This document shows positions 18,408-53,692 of a stretch of 64,000 nucleotides of DNA, piece after piece. The position numbers and the translations under genes were made by a program. The notes beneath the pieces are model-generated. The model saw nothing but the letters and a program-made list of their open reading frames with translations, was not told the origin of the DNA and made no database searches. The stretch covers positions 62,717 to 126,716 of the forward strand of contig CAXBBG010000005.1 of the NCBI GenBank assembly GCA_963974105.1, read 5' to 3'. The stretch's first letter is position 1; each line of letters starts with the position of its first letter. This DNA is from an uncultured Magnetococcales bacterium. GTDB lineage: Bacteria > Pseudomonadota > Alphaproteobacteria > UBA2136.

Positions 18408-19460
18408 TTAGTTAGGATTTACCATGCAAATAAGAGAGTTACTATTCGTACAGGTAGCAGTTATCCCACCCCATCTTCTCCTATCTGTGCGACTTGAAGC
18501 TGGAAAACCTACATATCCACTACCGGATGTAGAGGCCCAGTTGCCGCAAGTGTATCCAGACGCGCCTGTTGTATTCCAACGGTCATGGGCACCAACCGCC
18601 CCCTTTCCTGTCCAATACACAATTGGATTGCTAAAATGGTCTCCATCACTCCAATCGTCATAGTTACCAGGCCCCGTACCGTTTACATCTGTCGTAAATG
18701 TGGCACCACCAATAGTTGTAGAAAATGCTTTTGCGAATGTGTATTCAGTATTTGCTTCTAAATTGTTACATGTCGTATTGTCACACAGCCATGCCTTAGT
18801 AGTATACCCTGTAGGGTATCCAGCAGGTTTGCCTTTCCAATCCCTGGACGTTAACTCAGTTTCACACTTAGTATTAGCACCTGATAAACCACCTAGAGCA
18901 CTACCTTGGAAGGTAGCCGAAGTAGCCACAAAATAGTTTAGCTTAGCATTTAAGGCATCTATCCAAGTATCGCCATTACAAAATTGCATAATATCTAAAG
19001 TGGTATTATATTCTATGGTAGATTCTACATGAGCAGGAGTAGAGCATCCTCCACTGCCTGCTGCAACATAAGTGTTGCCGCTTACATTTTCCCAATTATC
19101 ACCATTGCAAAATTGATAAGTATTCGTTGTGACATTATATTCTAAGGAGCCTTCTGGGGACGCTGGAGATGTACATGCTGTACCTGTTGCAAGGGGCGCA
19201 CTGTTACCCATATCAATCCAATTTGCACCATCACAAAACTGTAAAACATTATCGGTATAGCTGTATTGAATAGAGCCATTAATACCCGCAGGTCCAGTGC
19301 ATGCACCATAGGCACTATTTACTACAAATACAAACATGAAAAGCCATGAAAATTTCAAAACAAAACGTGTTAAAACTTGACGACAACTATAAAAACCAAA
19401 GCCATTTTCTACATATTCACCTAAACCCAAACCTAAAATCCTGCCCATTTTATTTACCAT
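18408..19460 (-). CDS. secreted protein with three CxxP..G..Y..QFCxGxxW repeats and a DUF1554/endostatin-like C-terminal domain
   Basis: Three repeats of about 42 aa; C-terminal GGLSGANTKC...KAWL...YWTG...TCGNW...C...LICM pattern; true start may be a downstream Met. Confidence 0.75.
   Translation of the reverse strand: MVNKMGRILGLGLGEYVENGFGFYSCRQVLTRFVLKFSWLFMFVFVVNSAYGACTGPAGINGSIQYSYTDNVLQFCDGANWIDMGNSAPLATGTACTSPASPEGSLEYNVTTNTYQFCNGDNWENVSGNTYVAAGSGGCSTPAHVESTIEYNTTLDIMQFCNGDTWIDALNAKLNYFVATSATFQGSALGGLSGANTKCETELTSRDWKGKPAGYPTGYTTKAWLCDNTTCNNLEANTEYTFAKAFSTTIGGATFTTDVNGTGPGNYDDWSDGDHFSNPIVYWTGKGAVGAHDRWNTTGASGYTCGNWASTSGSGYVGFPASSRTDRRRWGGITATCTNSNSLICMVNPN
19133..19181. repeat. 49-bp perfect inverted repeat, arm 1 (partner at 21552-21600)
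   Basis: Its reverse complement ACAGCATGTACATCTCCAGCGTCCCCAGAAGGCTCCTTAGAATATAATG is identical to 21552-21600. Confidence 0.92.
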
Positions 19461-19649
19461 GCCCTTTTACATTCAATACAACATATATATCAGATACATA
19501 TAATTATTAAACTTACTTTATATAATATACTATCTATTACAAAAATTTAACAAAAAAAATAGTAACGCATTGAAAAGTATAAAATAGCTTAAAATTAACC
19601 ATGTATTTACAATGTACGTTTAATTGATGGGGGGTGCCAGTGGGTGCCG

Positions 19650-19701
19650 CGCGGGACAGTATAGCGGTAATAATAAACACCAAACTTGCTTCTGTGTAAG
19701 T
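19650..19701 (+). repeat. intergenic direct repeat A, copy 1 (52-bp core)
   Basis: CGCGGGACAGTATAGCGGTAATAATAAACACCAAACTTGCTTCTGTGTAAGT; 49/52 identical to copy 2; weaker similarity extends into both flanks. Confidence 0.92.
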
Positions 19702-19744
19702 ACATAAAAAGCAAGTTTAGTGTCAGTTGATGGGCGTGTAGAAG

Positions 19745-20950
19745 TTATTTATTTTCTAGTTTTTGCAATGAAGAAATAACATCAAAGGACGCTTCTTCTA
19801 ACGAATTTACTAAGTCAGAGATATCTGCATTAGGGTTATCTTTTCTCCGTTTGATCGCATCACTTGCCGAATTATGTACAAGTTTATGCGGGTGCTCCAT
19901 TTCGTTAAAATCGTTATTTTTGTCAAACATCTTTTTACCATCCTCATAGTACCATTTACCTAGACGGCAAGTTGTATGATCGCCAATGGTGGCAAGGTCC
20001 AAATCAATACGCCCCATTTCATAATCTACAATTTTCTTTTTCCATAGGGCGTGGTCAGCCTGCGCCAAAATAACAACTTTATTTTCTATATCTTGCTCAG
20101 CTAGTAATGCACGCTGTCCTTCAATAACAGATGTTAAATTATCAAGTAAGTTCATAATATCATCTGTTTGTTTGTCATTTTTATCAGCTTCTTGGGAAAC
20201 TTCAAATATGCTCTCTGATATTTGCTGTGAAGCTTCTGACTGCTCTTGTGTTGAATGTGCAATATTGTCCATTAAAACTTGAATTTCATTTGCAGAAGCT
20301 GAAAGCATATTTACTTTTTCAGTGCCATCAATAACACTTTGTTGTGATTCATTAACAGCCGTAAACACCTTTTCAACTTCATTGTGAATTTCGTTAATTG
20401 TTATAGCAATTTCAGCTGTTGCGCTTTGTGATTGTGTTGCTAGCTTTCGTACTTCATCTGCAACTACAGCAAAACCTTTACCTGCTTCACCAGCTCTGGC
20501 TGCCTCAATCGAGGCATTTAAAGCTAGTAAGTTAGTTTGGTCACTAATACCATCAATAGTTTTAACAACTTGTTGTATTTTGCCTGAAGCTTTTTGTAGT
20601 AGCCCCATACATTCAGCCGTATTGGTCATTTTAGTATTAATTGACTGCATTACATCAATAGCTTCTTGTACTTCATTGTTTACACGTACTGCTGTTGTAG
20701 AAGCGTCAGAAGCATGCGCTGCAATTCCATGTACTGTTGAAGCCATTTCTTCGCTTGCACTTGCTGTTGTGTTGACAAGGTCATGTATATTCACGGAAGC
20801 TTTGCGAATTTTGCTTGTTTGCATTGCAACATCAACTACAGACATCGAAGCATCGACAATCCCTTTTAGAAGTTGGGGTAAAATATTATTTTTCTGCTGG
20901 CGCTTAAAAGTAAACATGTTTTTTTTATCTTTATTTCTTGTTGATGTCAA
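19745..20950 (-). CDS. soluble methyl-accepting chemotaxis protein with C-terminal CZB zinc-binding domain
   Basis: [34 protein letters not shown] hairpin; CZB DHALWK...[11 protein letters not shown]...HKLVH; no TM segment; start may be the Met at 20917. Confidence 0.9.
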
Positions 20951-21108
20951 TCTTGGTTTTTGTCAAGCTCAGCCCTAACTTTACACAGCTTTACATTTCG
21001 ATATAATTTGTCATACTTGACGTTAATTTGCAAAGACTTTATCTTTACAGCGCGGTTTCATTATGTGTAAGGCTTAAAGGTGCCAGTAGGTGCTGTTCAC
21101 GTATGTAT

Positions 21109-21160
21109 CGCGGGACAGTATAACGGTAATAGTAAACACCAAACTTGCTTCTGTATAAGT
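21109..21160 (+). repeat. intergenic direct repeat A, copy 2
   Basis: CGCGGGACAGTATAACGGTAATAGTAAACACCAAACTTGCTTCTGTATAAGT, preceded by GGTGCCAGTAGGTGC as copy 1 is by GGTGCCAGTGGGTGC. Confidence 0.92.
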
Positions 21161-21359
21161 GTTACAAGCATAAAAACAGCCCCTCTCATCTTCAAAAAAC
21201 CTAAATCCTGTTCCGAAAATATTTTTTGCTAATAAACAGGATGTCTGCCCCCATTTATATATCGCCAAACAATTGATATTATTTAATATATCTTGATTTA
21301 AAACATTAAAGAATATAAGTTAAAAACATATTTAATACTTTTTAAAAGGTTCCTGAAAA

Positions 21360-22511
21360 TTGATGAGACTCAAACGATGTAAAACACTCTTATGTTTATC
21401 GCTTTTGATAACAAGCAACGCGTACGCTGCATGCACATCTCCATCTGCTGCGGCTGGTTCAATGCATTATAACTATACCAACAATGTTTTACAGTTTTGT
21501 GATGGTGCCGACTGGACAGATATGGGGGACAGCTCTCCCTCGGCAGCAGGAACAGCATGTACATCTCCAGCGTCCCCAGAAGGCTCCTTAGAATATAATG
21601 AAACCAATAATGCTTATCAATTTTGCAATGGTGACACTTGGAAAACCGTAAGCGGCCAAAGTTATGCTGCAGCTGGCAGTAGCGGTTGCCTGGCCCCTTC
21701 CTTTGGGGAGAAGACAATAGAATATAATACATCGTCAAATAAAATGCAGTTTTGCAATGGTGACACTTGGATAAATACAACCAAGTCAACTATTGCGAGC
21801 ACTATACCATTTACAGAAAACCTTGTTCTTTGGCTTGATTCAGAAGATATTGACGGTGACGGGGCCATTGAAGGCGTTTCTGAAACCGGGATAACTGCAG
21901 GTAAAGTAACGCTTTGGGTTGATAAGTCATCTCAAGGAAACAATGCTATTTCAGAAGGGGATGACCCAACATTTGCAGAATCTGTTGATGGACGCAACAT
22001 GATTGAATTTAACCTCAACCGATTGATCATCGGCCAACCCGCAAGCTTAGCATACACACCTCAAAGCACTTCTATGACTATATTTATTGCCGTTAATAAT
22101 GACAATGGCACACAAGGTGCTTATATATCTAAAGCTGGTTCAACCGGAAATCTTCGAGGCCCGTACATATTCGGACAAAGTAATCAGGTTGATGTATTCT
22201 CTGGTGGTGTGCAACACCCTGATCTAGACAATTACAACATTGGTAATGAGTATTATTCATACATTTTAGAAGCAAATTCAAGTGGTGCCTATTTTTACAC
22301 CGGAGGCATTGTTAATTTAACAGCAGGATCTATCGGTACTGGCTCAAATACGTCTGACTGGATACTGGGAGCGAGACGCACTAGCGATACCAACACCGGT
22401 GCAGGGTTCGAAATGGATGGTGGTCATATTGGTGAAGTTATTATATTCGACCTGGCACTTTCAGACGCGTCGCGTACAACTATTGAAGACTACCTTGCTT
22501 CTAAATGGTAG
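21360..22511 (+). CDS. secreted protein with three CxxP..G..Y..QFCxGxxW repeats and a LamG/concanavalin-like jelly-roll C-terminal domain
   Basis: Signal peptide ending AYA; N-terminal repeats paralogous to 18408-19460; C-terminal LVLWLDSED...WVDKSSQGNNA...GHIGEVIIFDLALS...IEDYLASKW. Confidence 0.78.
   Translation: MMRLKRCKTLLCLSLLITSNAYAACTSPSAAAGSMHYNYTNNVLQFCDGADWTDMGDSSPSAAGTACTSPASPEGSLEYNETNNAYQFCNGDTWKTVSGQSYAAAGSSGCLAPSFGEKTIEYNTSSNKMQFCNGDTWINTTKSTIASTIPFTENLVLWLDSEDIDGDGAIEGVSETGITAGKVTLWVDKSSQGNNAISEGDDPTFAESVDGRNMIEFNLNRLIIGQPASLAYTPQSTSMTIFIAVNNDNGTQGAYISKAGSTGNLRGPYIFGQSNQVDVFSGGVQHPDLDNYNIGNEYYSYILEANSSGAYFYTGGIVNLTAGSIGTGSNTSDWILGARRTSDTNTGAGFEMDGGHIGEVIIFDLALSDASRTTIEDYLASKW
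21552..21600. repeat. 49-bp perfect inverted repeat, arm 2
   Basis: Identical to the reverse complement of 19133-19181. Confidence 0.92.
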
Positions 22512-22623
22512 AGATACCAATATGCCATTTGCTCACCAAACAAACAGCTTCGCTTCGCACATGTGTTTTAAGTGTACATGTATAATGCAAGTTGGCAATG
22601 ATGGATGTTGTTCACGGACATTC

Positions 22624-22675
22624 CGTGGCAGAGTATAACGGTAATAGCAAACACCAAACTTGCTTCTGTATAAGT
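22624..22675 (+). repeat. intergenic direct repeat A, copy 3
   Basis: CGTGGCAGAGTATAACGGTAATAGCAAACACCAAACTTGCTTCTGTATAAGT; 48/52 identical to copy 2; downstream flank resembles that of copy 1 (ACAT...TTAGTGTC..TTGA). Confidence 0.92.
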
Positions 22676-22720
22676 ACATGAATGGCTAGCTTAGTGTCGA
22701 TTGAACGAGAGGTAAAGTAT

Positions 22721-22765: not shown

Positions 22766-23461
22766 TTAACTAGTAATACCAAAAGTACCAGCAATAGTAC
22801 CACCGAATTCAAAGACAAGAGCACTAAGTGCTACAGGTTTTGAAGAACCATGAGTTACTACAGCAGGAGCATCTTTAACTCGTACCGCACTCCATGTATT
22901 CCAATCAATAGAATTTATAAACTCTTCAGCATTGTTAGGATTAACCCAAATCAACGCTTCAGTATCAGTATTCGTTGCATTGTTACACAACGAAACAGAA
23001 GTACAGTCACCAACCCATGTTTTAGAGCCAGCAGGAATTTTTACACCACCAACTTCTTCCATGAGTTCACGACGAGCCGTTTCGCTAATATCACTATCAG
23101 CTAACTCTTTATGACCACCAGGAACAGAAACAGCTTGTAAATAACCAGCCTTATCCTGAACACGTACTAGAAGATAGTTTTCACCATCTTTAGCAAATAC
23201 GACACCAATGTTAGCTGTATTAGCCAATAATAGTATTGTAAAATTTCTCGTGTTATCTGAATTCCCATGAGGATGAACAGATACAGAAAGGCTTGGCGCC
23301 ATTTGGTTGGTACGATCAATAGAAGATTTAATCACAGTATAACCAGCATCAAAGGCCAAGCTATTGTAGTTTGCTAGTATCTCATCATCAGATAAGTCTT
23401 TGTGCAAACTGTTTACTGCATTGTAAATCACACTAGTTTTTGGAGCATTTAATATATTCAT
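22766..23461 (-). CDS. divergent Nudix-domain protein with an N-terminal extension
   Basis: SVPGGHKELADSDISETARRELMEEVG Nudix box; start placed at MNILNAP. Confidence 0.72.
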   Translation of the reverse strand: MNILNAPKTSVIYNAVNSLHKDLSDDEILANYNSLAFDAGYTVIKSSIDRTNQMAPSLSVSVHPHGNSDNTRNFTILLLANTANIGVVFAKDGENYLLVRVQDKAGYLQAVSVPGGHKELADSDISETARRELMEEVGGVKIPAGSKTWVGDCTSVSLCNNATNTDTEALIWVNPNNAEEFINSIDWNTWSAVRVKDAPAVVTHGSSKPVALSALVFEFGGTIAGTFGITS

Positions 23462-23582
23462 AATAATTTTCCATAGGATATCAACCAAAATCAGAATGAT
23501 TTCAGTTAGAAAAACGTTAATCAAGATCAATAGTCTTAGTTACATATGGTGTTTAGTATTAATTTTACAAGTAATATTACTG

Positions 23583-23688
23583 ACTTCGTACAACCTCTTC
23601 GCACCCTCTCCAACCACCATAAATCTCACACACACCCTCACATCAACCCACCACCTAAAACACACGTTTGTACCACCAGTTTATACCT
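23583..23688 (+). repeat. direct repeat B, copy 1 (106 bp, C/A-rich)
   Basis: 99/106 identical to 26398-26503; ends in TTTGTACCACCAGTTTATACCT. Confidence 0.93.
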
Positions 23689-23741
23689 TGTGTGTGCAAA
23701 TACATGTAACAATTTGAAATGTATAGTGAATTTTAAAATGA

Positions 23742-23915
23742 TGGGTCGGGGGGGGGGAGTCGAACCCCCGTCCGCAATTAAGTCTTGTAACAGGCTACTA
23801 CATGTTTAGTTTCTAATTTATTTCTCCTAAACGCTGTCGGAAAACATACCACGCACAAGCCGCCCGCTAAAGTTTTAACCTTCGGGTCACGGCATCCCCT
23901 CTAGCGAGTACATCT
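23742..23915 (-). pseudogene. ssrA: decayed 3' half of a one-piece (E. coli-like) tmRNA gene
   Basis: Minus strand reads GAAGGTTAAAACTT...GTGGTATGTTTTCCGACAGC...ACTAAACATGTAGTA...CGGACGGGGGTTCGACTCCCCC..., matching my recollection of the E. coli ssrA pk3/pk4/T-arm; the acceptor end CCCCCGACCCA is non-canonical; no 5' half found; upstream boundary approximate. Confidence 0.7.
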
Positions 23916-23993
23916 AAATATAAACCAAATACAAACCTCAATGTACGAAAGTCGCGACTAAGTAATGAAATAAGGAAGGTTAAATATAGATAT

Positions 23994-24046: not shown

Positions 24047-25804
24047 TTATTCAAAAAAACGAATATGAATACCTATAGTGTTGTGGTTAATAAGAGCGTC
24101 TAAATCTCCGTCACCATCCATATCAGCTAAAGTTGCACCCACTGAGTTAGTAAGAGCGCCCCCCATGTTATTGTATTGGTTGGTCATGTAATCATCAGCA
24201 TGCACAATTTCTTGTTGGCTTAATACTGCATAGTCACCACTTGCATTTTCATGTAAAAGAACCAGCTCTAGGCTTGAATTAAACACATTACCACCTAATG
24301 AAGAGTAAGCTGCGATTAAAACATCACCGATACCATTTCCGTCAACATCTCCAGCAGGTATCATATATCCTAGTCGTCCATTCCCAAATGGCGTACCATT
24401 CTTAGTAACAGTAAATGTTTTAACCGCTTTAATAGTAAAATCACTATTCATGAGGGCAATTTCATATCCACCATCCACAGGTGAGCTATGCATTAAATCA
24501 ACCACACCGTCCCCATCAACATCACCAGCAACACGGTATACACCTGTAGTAACTGAATCTTGGAAGTGTTTAAGCTCTTTTACCGTACCGTCAATATTCA
24601 TTAAAACAAGAACAGTAACATCTCGCACTAATGTATAGCCCAATTGCTCACGTGCATAAACGTATTGCTTATTTGCACTACCGCGAATAACAGTAATAAA
24701 ATCCATCACACCATTCGCATCAACATCGGCATAAGCTTCCGTTTGAGATTCATTAAAAAGAAGCCCTCCTGGCATACTTTCAGGTAAATTACCAACAGCA
24801 TTGGAAACTTTAACTGTGCCTATCACACTGTAGCCATCTGCTTCATTATCGTCTAATAACAATATATGAAAACTTTGACCAACAAGTAAAACGTCCGTTG
24901 TGCCATTGCCGTCAAAATCACCCACGGGTTTTAAATAACTATAACTATAATTACCTGAATCAATTTCAAAACCAGTGTTTTTAACAGCTTTGTAACCAAT
25001 AGGTTGGTATGACTTAACAGTTCCGTCTGAATTTGTAGAAACAATAAACATTCTTGTACCATATTCATCTAATAGCAAAGGAGAAGAGCTAGACCTCCCT
25101 ATCGATCCTTGAGTTATGAACTCTTTAATGCCATTGCCATCTTTATCATCCAGCATAACAACATCTCTTCCAAAGTTTACTTTATCGGCAGCGCTTTGAA
25201 TCACAATAGGCAGCTCTGTAATGCTAGCATCACCAACAAAAGTTGTACCCATAGGACCAGAAGGAATAAAGTTCCCCTTGCTTTCATAAACAGGGCCAGG
25301 TGAGCTTGGATAACCAATATCACGCACTAATGCGTAGTCAAAAACAACATGACGATCATCGGACGTGGCGTTTGATATTTCAATACCTTCAAGGCCTTCA
25401 ATACCGCCTAGCGACACGACATATACCTCATATATGCCACCTACTTGACTATAACTCCCTTCAGTCACGCCATTTGCTGTGTAAATCAAGACTTTTACAT
25501 CGACTGATCTCCAGTCGGCTGTGTGTCTTAAAGTGCCTATTTCAATCCAATATGACTTTTCAGGTACTGCGTCGGATAAGTCTATATAAATTGAACCCGG
25601 CTCAGCAGGATCTACCGCGCTTGCCTTGCCTGCGACATACTGACCATCGTGTGCATTAGCATGAGTTTTATGAACCCAATTACCTGTGTAGGTAATACGA
25701 GCATCATCTTCTTCAATAATAGTTTCTACAGCTAGTTCTGCCTGAGCAGAAAACGCCAAGAATGCCGAAAGCGCCACAGCGCAAAGTATAGATTTTATCT
25801 TCAT
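24047..25804 (-). CDS. secreted FG-GAP/integrin-like beta-propeller protein with an N-terminal carbohydrate-binding-like domain
   Basis: Signal peptide ending AQA; repeated DxDGNGxxD/GDVDGDG calcium motifs; N-terminal DDARITYTGNW...VVFDYALV jelly-roll-like module. Confidence 0.8.
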   Translation of the reverse strand: MKIKSILCAVALSAFLAFSAQAELAVETIIEEDDARITYTGNWVHKTHANAHDGQYVAGKASAVDPAEPGSIYIDLSDAVPEKSYWIEIGTLRHTADWRSVDVKVLIYTANGVTEGSYSQVGGIYEVYVVSLGGIEGLEGIEISNATSDDRHVVFDYALVRDIGYPSSPGPVYESKGNFIPSGPMGTTFVGDASITELPIVIQSAADKVNFGRDVVMLDDKDGNGIKEFITQGSIGRSSSSPLLLDEYGTRMFIVSTNSDGTVKSYQPIGYKAVKNTGFEIDSGNYSYSYLKPVGDFDGNGTTDVLLVGQSFHILLLDDNEADGYSVIGTVKVSNAVGNLPESMPGGLLFNESQTEAYADVDANGVMDFITVIRGSANKQYVYAREQLGYTLVRDVTVLVLMNIDGTVKELKHFQDSVTTGVYRVAGDVDGDGVVDLMHSSPVDGGYEIALMNSDFTIKAVKTFTVTKNGTPFGNGRLGYMIPAGDVDGNGIGDVLIAAYSSLGGNVFNSSLELVLLHENASGDYAVLSQQEIVHADDYMTNQYNNMGGALTNSVGATLADMDGDGDLDALINHNTIGIHIRFFE

Positions 25805-26053
25805 GAGCGGTTTCCTCAAACGAGAGTAAAGAATAAAGCGAAGATTTTCGCCATTGATTCAAAGTTATTCAAAAACATCTAACGTTACCGTAAGTGCATT
25901 GTTTTAAAGGTATAATAGATGTTCCGTCTAATTTTGAAACGTGGTTGTAACATGCGTTAATTGCAACGTCAAACTTATTATGCAATTATGTAGTGTATGT
26001 ATATTTAAAAATATAACCTTTGTAACAAAACATTATATTCTCGCTCAAAGTAG

Positions 26054-26397: not shown

Positions 26398-26503
26398 ACT
26401 TCGTACAACCTCTTCGCACCCTCTCCAACCACCATAAATTCCACACACACCCTCACATCAACACACCACTCAAAACACACGTTTGTACCACCACTTTGTA
26501 CCT
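26398..26503 (+). repeat. direct repeat B, copy 2
   Basis: 99/106 identical to 23583-23688; ends in TTTGTACCACCACTTTGTACCT. Confidence 0.93.
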
Positions 26504-26669
26504 GTGGCATACAGTAGCTTATAACTACATGTCAAATTAGATTGAAATTTTCAATAAAAGAATAGATTTTGCACTGCGTGAAGACCTTATGGGTAAAGTG
26601 TATTTAACATACATGAGCCCATAAGCAGCTGAGCAAAGTGTGAAAGATAGCTTTTAGGGGATTTTTCAA

Positions 26670-26754
26670 TGGTGCCGACGATAGGACTCGAACCTACACA
26701 CCTTACGGCACAAGCACCTCATGCTTGCGTGTCTACCAATTTCACCACGTCGGC
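26670..26754 (-). tRNA. tRNA-Leu(GAG)
   Basis: GCCGACGTGGTGAAATTGGTAGACACGCAAGCATGAGGTGCTTGTGCCGTAAGGTGTGTAGGTTCGAGTCCTATCGTCGGCACCA: 7-bp acceptor stem, CAAGC/GCTTG anticodon stem, long variable arm, encoded CCA. Confidence 0.96.
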
Positions 26755-53494: not shown

Positions 53495-53692
53495 TTATGA
53501 CGCAGATGTGTCAGAAGTTGATTGTGCTACAATTTCACGATCAGCGTAAAACCCGCATGAAGGACATACGTGGTGTGGTTGCTTCAATTCGCCACAGTTA
53601 GGGCACTCTTGGTGCGCTGCTGCACTGATTGCGTCATGAGAACGACGTTGGCCACGACGTGATTTAGAAATCTTAGTTTTTGGTACTGCCAT
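53495..53692 (-). CDS. rpmF: 50S ribosomal protein L32 (zinc-ribbon type)
   Basis: [24 protein letters not shown]...HHVCPSCG. Confidence 0.96.

Follow-up and report, generated by a model that had tools for sequence, protein, structure and literature searches.

Direct repeats in a Magnetococcales island correspond to 5′ stubs of a tyrosine integrase gene and are very probably fossils of islets at tRNA-Leu and ssrA genes

A 52-nt sequence, designated repeat A, occurs three times (A1, A2 and A3) in a 64,000-nt stretch of the genome of an uncultured Magnetococcales bacterium of the Alphaproteobacteria (GenBank assembly GCA_963974105.1, contig CAXBBG010000005.1, positions 62,717 to 126,716; hereafter the window). 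An earlier sequence-only reading had described the locus as an array of single-gene cassettes separated by a non-coding repeat, which was taken for a recombination site of an undescribed cassette-capture system or a small RNA (sRNA) gene. On translation, repeat A is none of these: its minus strand reads as the start of a decayed tyrosine integrase gene, comprising the upstream region and 25-53 initial codons. The repeats are very probably fossils of serially integrated islets that targeted transfer RNA (tRNA) and transfer-messenger RNA (tmRNA) genes and decayed within a species-specific island.

Repeat A and the integrase reading frame

Repeat A is non-random. A 21-mer of its core is present three times in the window compared to 0.01 expected occurrences, and none of 100 shuffles reached three. 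As claimed before, the copies have the same orientation (plus strand starts at 19650, 21109 and 22624; spacing of 1459 and 1515 bp), and the identities of 49/52 between A1 and A2 and of 48/52 between A2 and A3 were reproduced; A1 and A3 are identical in 45/52 positions. The reported extension of homology into the flanks was recovered as well, an nhmmer profile giving copies of about 113 nt at 19631-19743, 21089-21206 and 22605-22717. Between successive copies lies a single long open reading frame (ORF), coding for a methyl-accepting chemotaxis protein (MCP) with a CZB domain (minus strand) and then for a 383-aa repeat protein (plus strand), and a Nudix gene is located beyond the third copy.

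We searched for further copies in the source genome (G000; 1.70 Mb, seven contigs, the window being part of G000:C5) and in three other genomes of the same genus (G001, G002 and the sister species G003). An nhmmer search of the whole source genome revealed a fourth copy (G000:C2:132814-132926) and no others at significance. Repeat A is present in three of the four genomes; G002, which is only 85% complete, has no copy. It was found in none of 25 other genomes of the order. Pattern scans of metagenome contigs retrieved one contig of 1485 bp (L040) and, apart from it, only the two contigs of G003 itself. Core searches for hidden diverged copies or secondary sites, with four mismatches allowed, returned known copies only. 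The resulting alignment comprises 11 copies, four from G000, five from G003 and one each from G001 and L040. Repeat A is neither scattered genome-wide nor the end of an insertion sequence, two outcomes which the sequence-only reading had named as pointing away from a new system; it is the reading frame that does so.

Read on the minus strand, the supposedly non-coding repeat gives MYL(H/Y)RSKFGVYYYRYT..., the N-terminus of an integrase. The two GT(A/G)TA(A/G) motifs described in it are present and are simply codons of this frame. In L040, a 230-aa ORF (MYLHRSKFGVYFYRYTLPRHV...; L040:418-1110) begins inside the repeat A copy on the opposite strand. Its product showed a match to the Pfam family DUF6538 (E 3e-5, 24 bits), which just missed the cut-off of 27, and a weak integrase SAM-like match. 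A full-length relative of 421 aa (P0004) was found by an exhaustive protein search, the word-indexed search having given two relatives only. P0004 is 73% identical to the L040 protein over residues 1-225 and contains DUF6538 (26.8 bits) together with a Phage_integrase catalytic domain (63.8 bits; cut-off 27.1). More distant relatives of P0004 score well above the Pfam cut-off for DUF6538. No relatives of P0004 were detected among viral contigs, and DUF6538 is not mentioned in the literature searched. In L040, the frames past the stop at residue 230 (1110-1485) still read as an integrase-like catalytic domain; hence a frameshift or a sequencing error must be present in this copy.

Comparison of the L040 protein with the four genus genomes showed that all four G000 copies and two of the G003 copies match residues 1 to 26-48 on the minus strand. 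Local tblastn searches with P0004 confirmed the three stubs in the window: A1 is 69% identical over 36 aa (E 4.5e-13), A2 matches residues 2-32 (E 4e-15) and residues 132-160 (E 8e-6; genome-wide E 0.72), and A3 gave two matches (E 4e-16 and 3e-7). The extent of each stub is given in Table 1. In A2, unrelated sequence replaces the ATG and the upstream region, and the alignment breaks after TAAGT. The distal end of A3 abuts the stop codon of the 383-aa gene. The 383-aa protein ends on the plus strand with the six residues YLASKW, which resemble YLVSKW, residues 46-51 of the integrase encoded just past it on the minus strand (22491-22545); the pair forms a short inverted repeat about this stop codon and is possibly due to chance (E 0.16). 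Beyond the integrase ATG, the upstream region measures about 38-55 nt. It harbors the arrangement TTTACC-N17-TAAACT, which was not called by the promoter scan and might represent a promoter.

The differences between the copies follow the reading frame. In seven copies compared over codons 3-19, variable columns were distributed 4/3/9 over codon positions 1/2/3 (one-sided binomial p about 0.05), and the peak of variable columns moved along when the frame was shifted. Among differing codon pairs, which are not independent of each other, 91 were synonymous and 48 non-synonymous. Because differences are commonest at third codon positions, the copies probably diverged while they were still working genes, and they would therefore derive from related but distinct elements.

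A close intact cognate integrase is absent from the four genus genomes and the stack is therefore probably immobile. The four Phage_integrase (PF00589) matches of G000 all reside on other contigs and are 22-25% identical to P0004. The contig of the window has no match to this family, and none was obtained in a Pfam scan of the 16 ORFs between 7.6 and 32.7 kb of the window. Serine recombinases were found in none of the genomes G000, G001 and G003. The check for a recombinase accompanying the repeats, which had been proposed for a cassette-capture system, was thus negative for both types: no Phage_integrase on this contig and no serine recombinase in G000.

Target genes beside the stubs and serial integration

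Six of the 11 repeat A copies point the same way as a tRNA-Leu gene or fragment located 0.4-1.6 kb away on the side of the integrase start. These stubs are located 3′ of the tRNA-Leu gene or fragment, and the anticodons are GAG (twice on G003:C21 and once on G001:C2), TAG (G000:C2) and CAA (G003:C4); the neighbor on G003:C20 is a 3′ fragment. A3 has a tmRNA 3′ fragment on its integrase-start side in the same relative arrangement. Two further copies are situated at contig ends, where no tRNA is visible.

Between tRNA and stub we always found a second repeat, designated B. An alignment of eight copies displayed a fixed layout of TTCGTACAACC, a CA-rich stretch and two TTTGTACC repeats 13 nt apart, with the CCA end about 70 nt further on. 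The same arrangement was observed downstream of tRNA-Leu(GAG), of tRNA-Leu(TAG), of ssrA itself (G000:C1) and of fragments of these genes. Judged by it, B may represent the arm region of an attachment site, to which the integrase would bind. The two copies in the window, B1 and B2, form a direct repeat (D2) with 93% identity over 106 nt. Further copies were seen on G000:C2 near 133230-133330 and at G000:C1:167894-168060. As B occurs downstream of the true ssrA and of tRNA-Leu(TAG), those loci probably carry element remnants, too.

The tmRNA fragment is located 2.9 kb from tRNA-Leu(GAG). It is 90.6% identical over 170 nt to the 3′ end of the true ssrA and its downstream flank, of which it includes 72 nt. 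The real ssrA gene (G000:C1:167446-167893) is the single tmRNA gene called by ARAGORN. Presence of the fragment implies either that an ssrA-type unit was moved to the window or that the integrase used both targets. The ARAGORN prediction for the gene on C1 is a one-piece tmRNA of 448 nt whose tag peptide (GLAEEDTLVYRGSCLVHIWIN) is odd; this tag reading may be wrong.

The sister species provides a tandem arrangement at the orthologous tRNA gene. Synteny between G003:C21 and the window covers tRNA-Leu(GAG), lipB and MgtE. Outward from the tRNA, the first unit is composed of the full tRNA-Leu, B, a 77-aa ORF, an integrase stub (31-aa frame MYLYRSKLGVYYYRYTLPRYIREQHPS...) and 88 nt. The second unit consists of tRNA-Leu without its first ~7 nt, B, a 109-aa ORF and a 5-codon stub, and is followed by unrelated chromosome. 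The block of B and tRNA-Leu (positions ~8-85) is a 234-nt tandem repeat with 89% identity, each repeat being followed by a stub. In G001, a 15-nt repeat of the tRNA-Leu 3′ end precedes a B-like arm, a small ORF and a stub. The organization of the G003 and G001 loci is the hallmark of one tRNA gene having been targeted repeatedly by site-specific integration, with the older unit displaced each time. In the window, the tmRNA 3′ fragment and the B1/B2 pair are the only direct-repeat traces of the target type. At the G001:C2 locus (L018, 6270-6474), about 190 bp lie between the 15-nt direct repeats of the tRNA-Leu 3′ end; this segment may be a very small insert or all that remains of a further element.

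Association with tRNA genes extends beyond the genus. Distant relatives of P0004 were detected in 28 of 401 sampled genomes of the class. Ten of 12 such loci contain a tRNA gene, which in nine of them is located just upstream of the integrase and co-oriented with it; the G001 locus among the 12 has no tRNA gene. The orthologous junctions of the repeat A copies at acs and recQ are not conserved in the sister genomes and therefore offer no pair of filled and empty sites.

According to the model we favor, small integrative elements of one family would have inserted serially at tRNA-Leu genes and ssrA in this genus. From the tRNA 3′ end, each unit would have comprised the tRNA core, arm B, sometimes one gene, the integrase gene and further cargo, and each new insertion would have pushed the older unit outward. 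Subsequent deletions would then have eliminated the bodies of the integrase genes along with most attachment sites and any dispensable cargo, presumably including B and the tRNA fragments once located between A1, A2 and A3. The survivors would be the integrase start, because it is located at the protected, tRNA-proximal and gene-bounded edge, and the small number of genes that remain in use (MCP, repeat protein and Nudix). The constant orientation of repeat A would result from directional integration at one tRNA gene. If the three copies are three fossils, it follows that the 'single-gene cassettes' are survivors of decay and not captured cassettes. The earlier idea that the repeat is a scar left where a system stacked cargo beside tRNA-Leu is borne out with respect to the scar, which would stem from integrative elements in an island ending at tRNA-Leu(GAG), and not with respect to a capture system.

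Several observations weigh against this model. A1 and A2 have no adjacent tRNA or tmRNA gene or fragment, and neither repeat B nor a tRNA fragment is present between A1, A2 and A3; serial integration at the window site is therefore inferred from the locus of the sister species. The A3 unit carries a tmRNA fragment and not tRNA-Leu, which calls for an extra rearrangement or a dual-target integrase. An intact element of the family with both ends was not recovered, and the roles of B (arm site) and of the tRNA (attB) are putative. All stubs are short (2-53 codons, in one case plus an internal piece), a pattern that random deletion does not obviously predict, and serial integration gives no account of the clustering of break points at an inverted repeat described below. 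Moreover, the DUF6538 scores of the closest proteins fall just under the Pfam cut-off, and the GC content of the island (0.35-0.44) is not atypical and resembles that of the flanks.

The empty spaces between A1, A2 and A3 would also be compatible with local duplication or homologous recombination of one stub, for example by circles of a stub and one gene entering a resident stub, in place of three integrations. The direct orientation and the ~1.5-kb spacing suit recombination between repeats, and A1 and A2 alone share a distinctive left flank, GGTGCCAGTRGGTGC, which is absent from the other copies. However, the lesions differ between the copies: A1 has an in-frame gap, A2 has lost residues 33-131 and the ATG, and A3 is frameshifted. 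Furthermore, the window copies on their own show a third-position bias (variable columns 2/1/5, p about 0.09; pairwise differences 4/2/11), which, with small numbers, suggests divergence while coding. We consider such a duplication unlikely.

The inverted repeat at the start codon and known repeat systems

Repeat A had been described as not palindromic. In fact, its core pairs imperfectly with a sequence immediately 3′ of it in copies 1, 3 and 4, the two forming the arms of a long inverted repeat. This second arm belongs to the integrase upstream region, and the start codon is situated in the middle. Folding of the integrase-sense strand yielded -23.6 kcal/mol for A1 (z -6.2), -17.7 for A3 (z -3.4) and -19.8 for L040 (z -6.0). 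The opposite strand folds less well (A1 -19.0, A3 -8.6 with z +0.7, L040 -13.3 kcal/mol). A plus-strand RNA, considered because of G-U pairs, was rejected since the minus strand, which is the integrase-sense strand, folds better in all three copies. The hairpin is followed by a T-rich run (TTTATTATT-type sequence). The inverted repeat may act as an operator, attenuate integrase expression or terminate transcription of an upstream co-directional gene.

The latter functions raise the question whether the stub was retained because it is useful, with the sense-strand hairpin and its U-rich run terminating or attenuating transcription of the upstream co-directional gene, or serving as an operator. 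This would account for the survival of the upstream region and the first codons; the upstream region is kept in nine of ten truncated copies, and the hairpin, which folds well and better on the integrase-sense strand, is located about 20 nt past the MCP stop and followed by the TTTATTATT-type run. On the other hand, one arm of the inverted repeat is lost in four partial copies and a compensatory change was found in only 2 of 23 predicted pairs. In addition, the terminator scan gave no call at the repeat A hairpin, and the neighbor of A3 has a terminator-like site of its own (22753-22726, near the Nudix gene). A retained function of this kind appears quite improbable. In an extended version, the upstream region and the first ~15 codons would be a conserved portable terminator or attenuator, and the stubs would in addition be RecA homology anchors stacking one-gene units without an integrase. 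We regard this proposal as very improbable; if true, it would mean integrase-independent cassette accretion in a streamlined marine alphaproteobacterium.

The break points of the partial copies cluster at the inverted repeat. Three of them (A2 and two in G003) lie within ~12 nt at its center and two at its edge, which could reflect palindrome-stimulated deletion or recombination at this site. The same clustering would also fit a non-coding recombination site of an integron-like or new cassette-capture system, and direct repeats beside a tRNA with one gene between them likewise fit such a site or an sRNA gene family. Against these identities stand the integrase N-terminal frame with its coding-type substitution pattern, the presence of only four copies in the genome and the genes between the copies, which face both ways. 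It is extremely unlikely that repeat A is such a site or an sRNA gene. Searches for signs of an sRNA were negative, too. The only gathering-level match to Rfam in the window is the tRNA. Between 19560 and 22800, the best Rfam 15 match overlapping repeat A was sraA with 20.1 bits compared to a required 56 (E 8.7), and neither the search at the gathering score nor the one at E<=10 identified an RNA family in repeat A. RNAalifold, applied to six copies, returned the hairpin with a covariation term of almost nil (-0.03), and neither a promoter nor a terminator was called on the plus strand at repeat A. An sRNA or cis-regulatory RNA was rejected on these grounds.

The closest described case is found in islands that have stacked at tRNA or tmRNA genes and afterwards lost the recombinase. 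The Asn-tDNA islands of K. pneumoniae are reportedly an example of tandem tRNA-targeting genomic islands. In Dehalococcoides, tandem genomic islands occur at the tmRNA gene ssrA, for which the concept of accretion and cis-mobilizable elements is used (PMC3146451). They resemble our loci in serial integration at one small-RNA gene, as proposed here, with direct repeats of its 3′ end, seen here in G003 and G001, in units stacked outward with integration genes at the gene-proximal edge, in units without a recombinase that are probably fixed, and in content that varies among relatives (PMC3146451). In contrast to the serine recombinase of the Dehalococcoides islands described there, the recombinase deduced here is a tyrosine integrase with a DUF6538 N-terminus (PMC3146451). 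The units analyzed here also differ in having shrunk to 1-3 kb, in the survival of the integrase start alone and in the loss of most tRNA repeats in the window.

Integron arrays and clusters of attC sites lacking an integrase (CALIN) are rows of single genes with a conserved ~100-nt repeat containing an imperfect inverted repeat. The locus resembles them in its single genes separated by a ~100-nt repeat of this type and in the missing integrase nearby. An attC site is an imperfect palindrome of the form R''-L''...L'-R' with the ends RYYYAAC / GTTRRRY. In contrast, the arm ends of repeat A (ACCAAAC / GTTTAGT) misfit this pattern, an unpaired spacer between the boxes is missing, and the flanks are asymmetric and coding, repeat A being integrase coding sequence plus upstream region. 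Unlike integron cassettes, the genes of the locus face both ways and have their own upstream regions, and there are only four copies of the repeat. An IntI-type integrase was not found beside the array among the 16 ORFs scanned.

Archaeal integrases of the SSV1 type have genes that are split on integration, an N-terminal fragment being left beside the tRNA; the break occurs at a fixed attP inside the integrase gene, in sequence shared with the tRNA. Here, too, N-terminal integrase fragments persist beside tRNA genes and mark past integrations and trapped genes. However, the break points vary (codons 2 to 53) and the stub has no tRNA homology.

Repetitive extragenic palindromic (REP) sequences and their mosaic elements (BIME), miniature inverted-repeat transposable elements (MITEs) and Rickettsia palindromic elements are dispersed intergenic repeats with tens to hundreds of copies. 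Repeat A is similar to these as a short intergenic hairpin repeat confined to one genus. It differs from REP and MITE types in its four copies, its coding origin, the lack of shared ends beyond the integrase frame and of a REP-associated (RAYT-type) Y1 transposase, and in that terminal inverted repeats or target duplications were not seen. Y1 transposases (Y1_Tnp) were absent from all four genus genomes. PF07282 matches across the genomes were confined to frames of 76-89 aa, and the single one in G000 (76 aa) is too short for TnpB. An origin from IS200/IS605 insertion sequences, palindrome-associated transposable elements (PATE) or REP elements was rejected because of the missing Y1 transposase, the lack of a TnpB-sized PF07282 match and the absence of serine recombinases from G000, G001 and G003. 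The 76-aa frame is located at 53525-53611 of the window (G000:C5:116241-116327), scores 26.1 bits as a PF07282 zinc ribbon and is conserved in all four genomes. On the features tested, integron, CALIN, MITE, REP element and known RNA family were each rejected as the identity of repeat A.

Island genes, borders and significance

The features of the locus are summarized in Table 1. The island extends from about 18.1 to 26.4 kb and comprises a repeat protein, the MCP, a second repeat protein, the Nudix gene, the tmRNA fragment and an FG-GAP protein. No DNA counterpart of the island was found in G001-G003 except for the repeats and, elsewhere in G002, a relative of the MCP.

Table 1. Positions of stubs, repeats, genes and gene fragments in the window
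Feature	Position	Strand	Remarks
350-aa repeat protein gene	18408..19460	-	far side of A1; last island gene before katG; no DNA match in G001-G003
Repeat A1 stub	19610..19743	-	residues 1-36 at 19705-19610; in-frame gap of 4-5 codons, early stop
Repeat A1, upstream part	19706-19743	-	~38 nt; abuts stop codon of MCP gene
MCP gene, CZB zinc-binding domain	19745..20950	-	between A1 and A2; Pfam MCPsignal 6e-41, CZB 9e-15
Repeat A2 stub	20985..21161	-	residues 2-32 (21161-21069) joined in frame to residues 132-160 (21071-20985, with stops)
383-aa repeat protein gene	21360..22511	+	between A2 and A3; from ORF list
Repeat A3 stub	22519..22717	-	residues 1-32 (22679-22584), frameshift, homology to about residue 53 (22519); ~38 nt upstream
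Nudix-domain gene	22766..23530	-	between B1 and A3; Pfam NUDIX 3.9e-7
Repeat B1 and spacer	23583..23740 (B1 23583-23688)		GTACAA / TTGTAC motif; adjoins tmRNA 3′ fragment
tmRNA (ssrA) 3′ fragment	23741..23952	-	Rfam 42.8 bits (gathering score 47), E 1.1e-15; 5′-truncated
FG-GAP repeat protein gene	24047..25819	-	between B1 and B2; Pfam FG-GAP_3 8.5e-9
Repeat B2 and spacer	26398..26560 (B2 26398-26503)		paired TTTGTACC repeats; downstream of tRNA-Leu(GAG)
tRNA-Leu(GAG)	26670..26754	-	ARAGORN, Rfam; right border of species-variable island

The tRNA-Leu(GAG) gene, the likely integration target, is the point at which synteny with G003 and G001 starts, the side with lipB and MgtE being conserved in both. 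On the other side of the island, katG and RimK are conserved, but located elsewhere in the relatives. About 110 nt between B2 and the 3′ end of tRNA-Leu(GAG) (26560-26668) are absent at the G003 junction, which points to a small insertion.

The MCP gene is co-directional with integrase stub A1. Its relative in G002 encodes a 57% identical protein in an unrelated context without repeat A and without a tRNA. The 350-aa and 383-aa proteins are paralogues, and their genes share a 322-nt inverted repeat (I1) with 78% identity (18957-19278 / 21455-21776). Both proteins contain tandem repeats of ~42 aa and neither has a Pfam family; the LamG label given previously to the 383-aa protein found no support, no family matching at E<=0.01. 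In other units, small genes hold the position that the Nudix gene occupies here.

These results dispose of a false lead, since the supposed repeat of a cassette-capture system turned out to be the conserved 5′ end of an integrase gene that has decayed. They also teach that both strands of an intergenic repeat ought to be translated before it is called non-coding. The locus is real, well explained and ordinary, a genome scar of a common kind. In a genome of 1.7 Mb, it neatly illustrates on a small scale how islets that target tRNA genes pile up and decay. The MCP, the surface-type repeat proteins and the Nudix gene would be the lasting gains from the islets, and the stub together with arm B and its paired TTTGTACC repeats can serve as markers for fossil stacks in related metagenome-assembled genomes.

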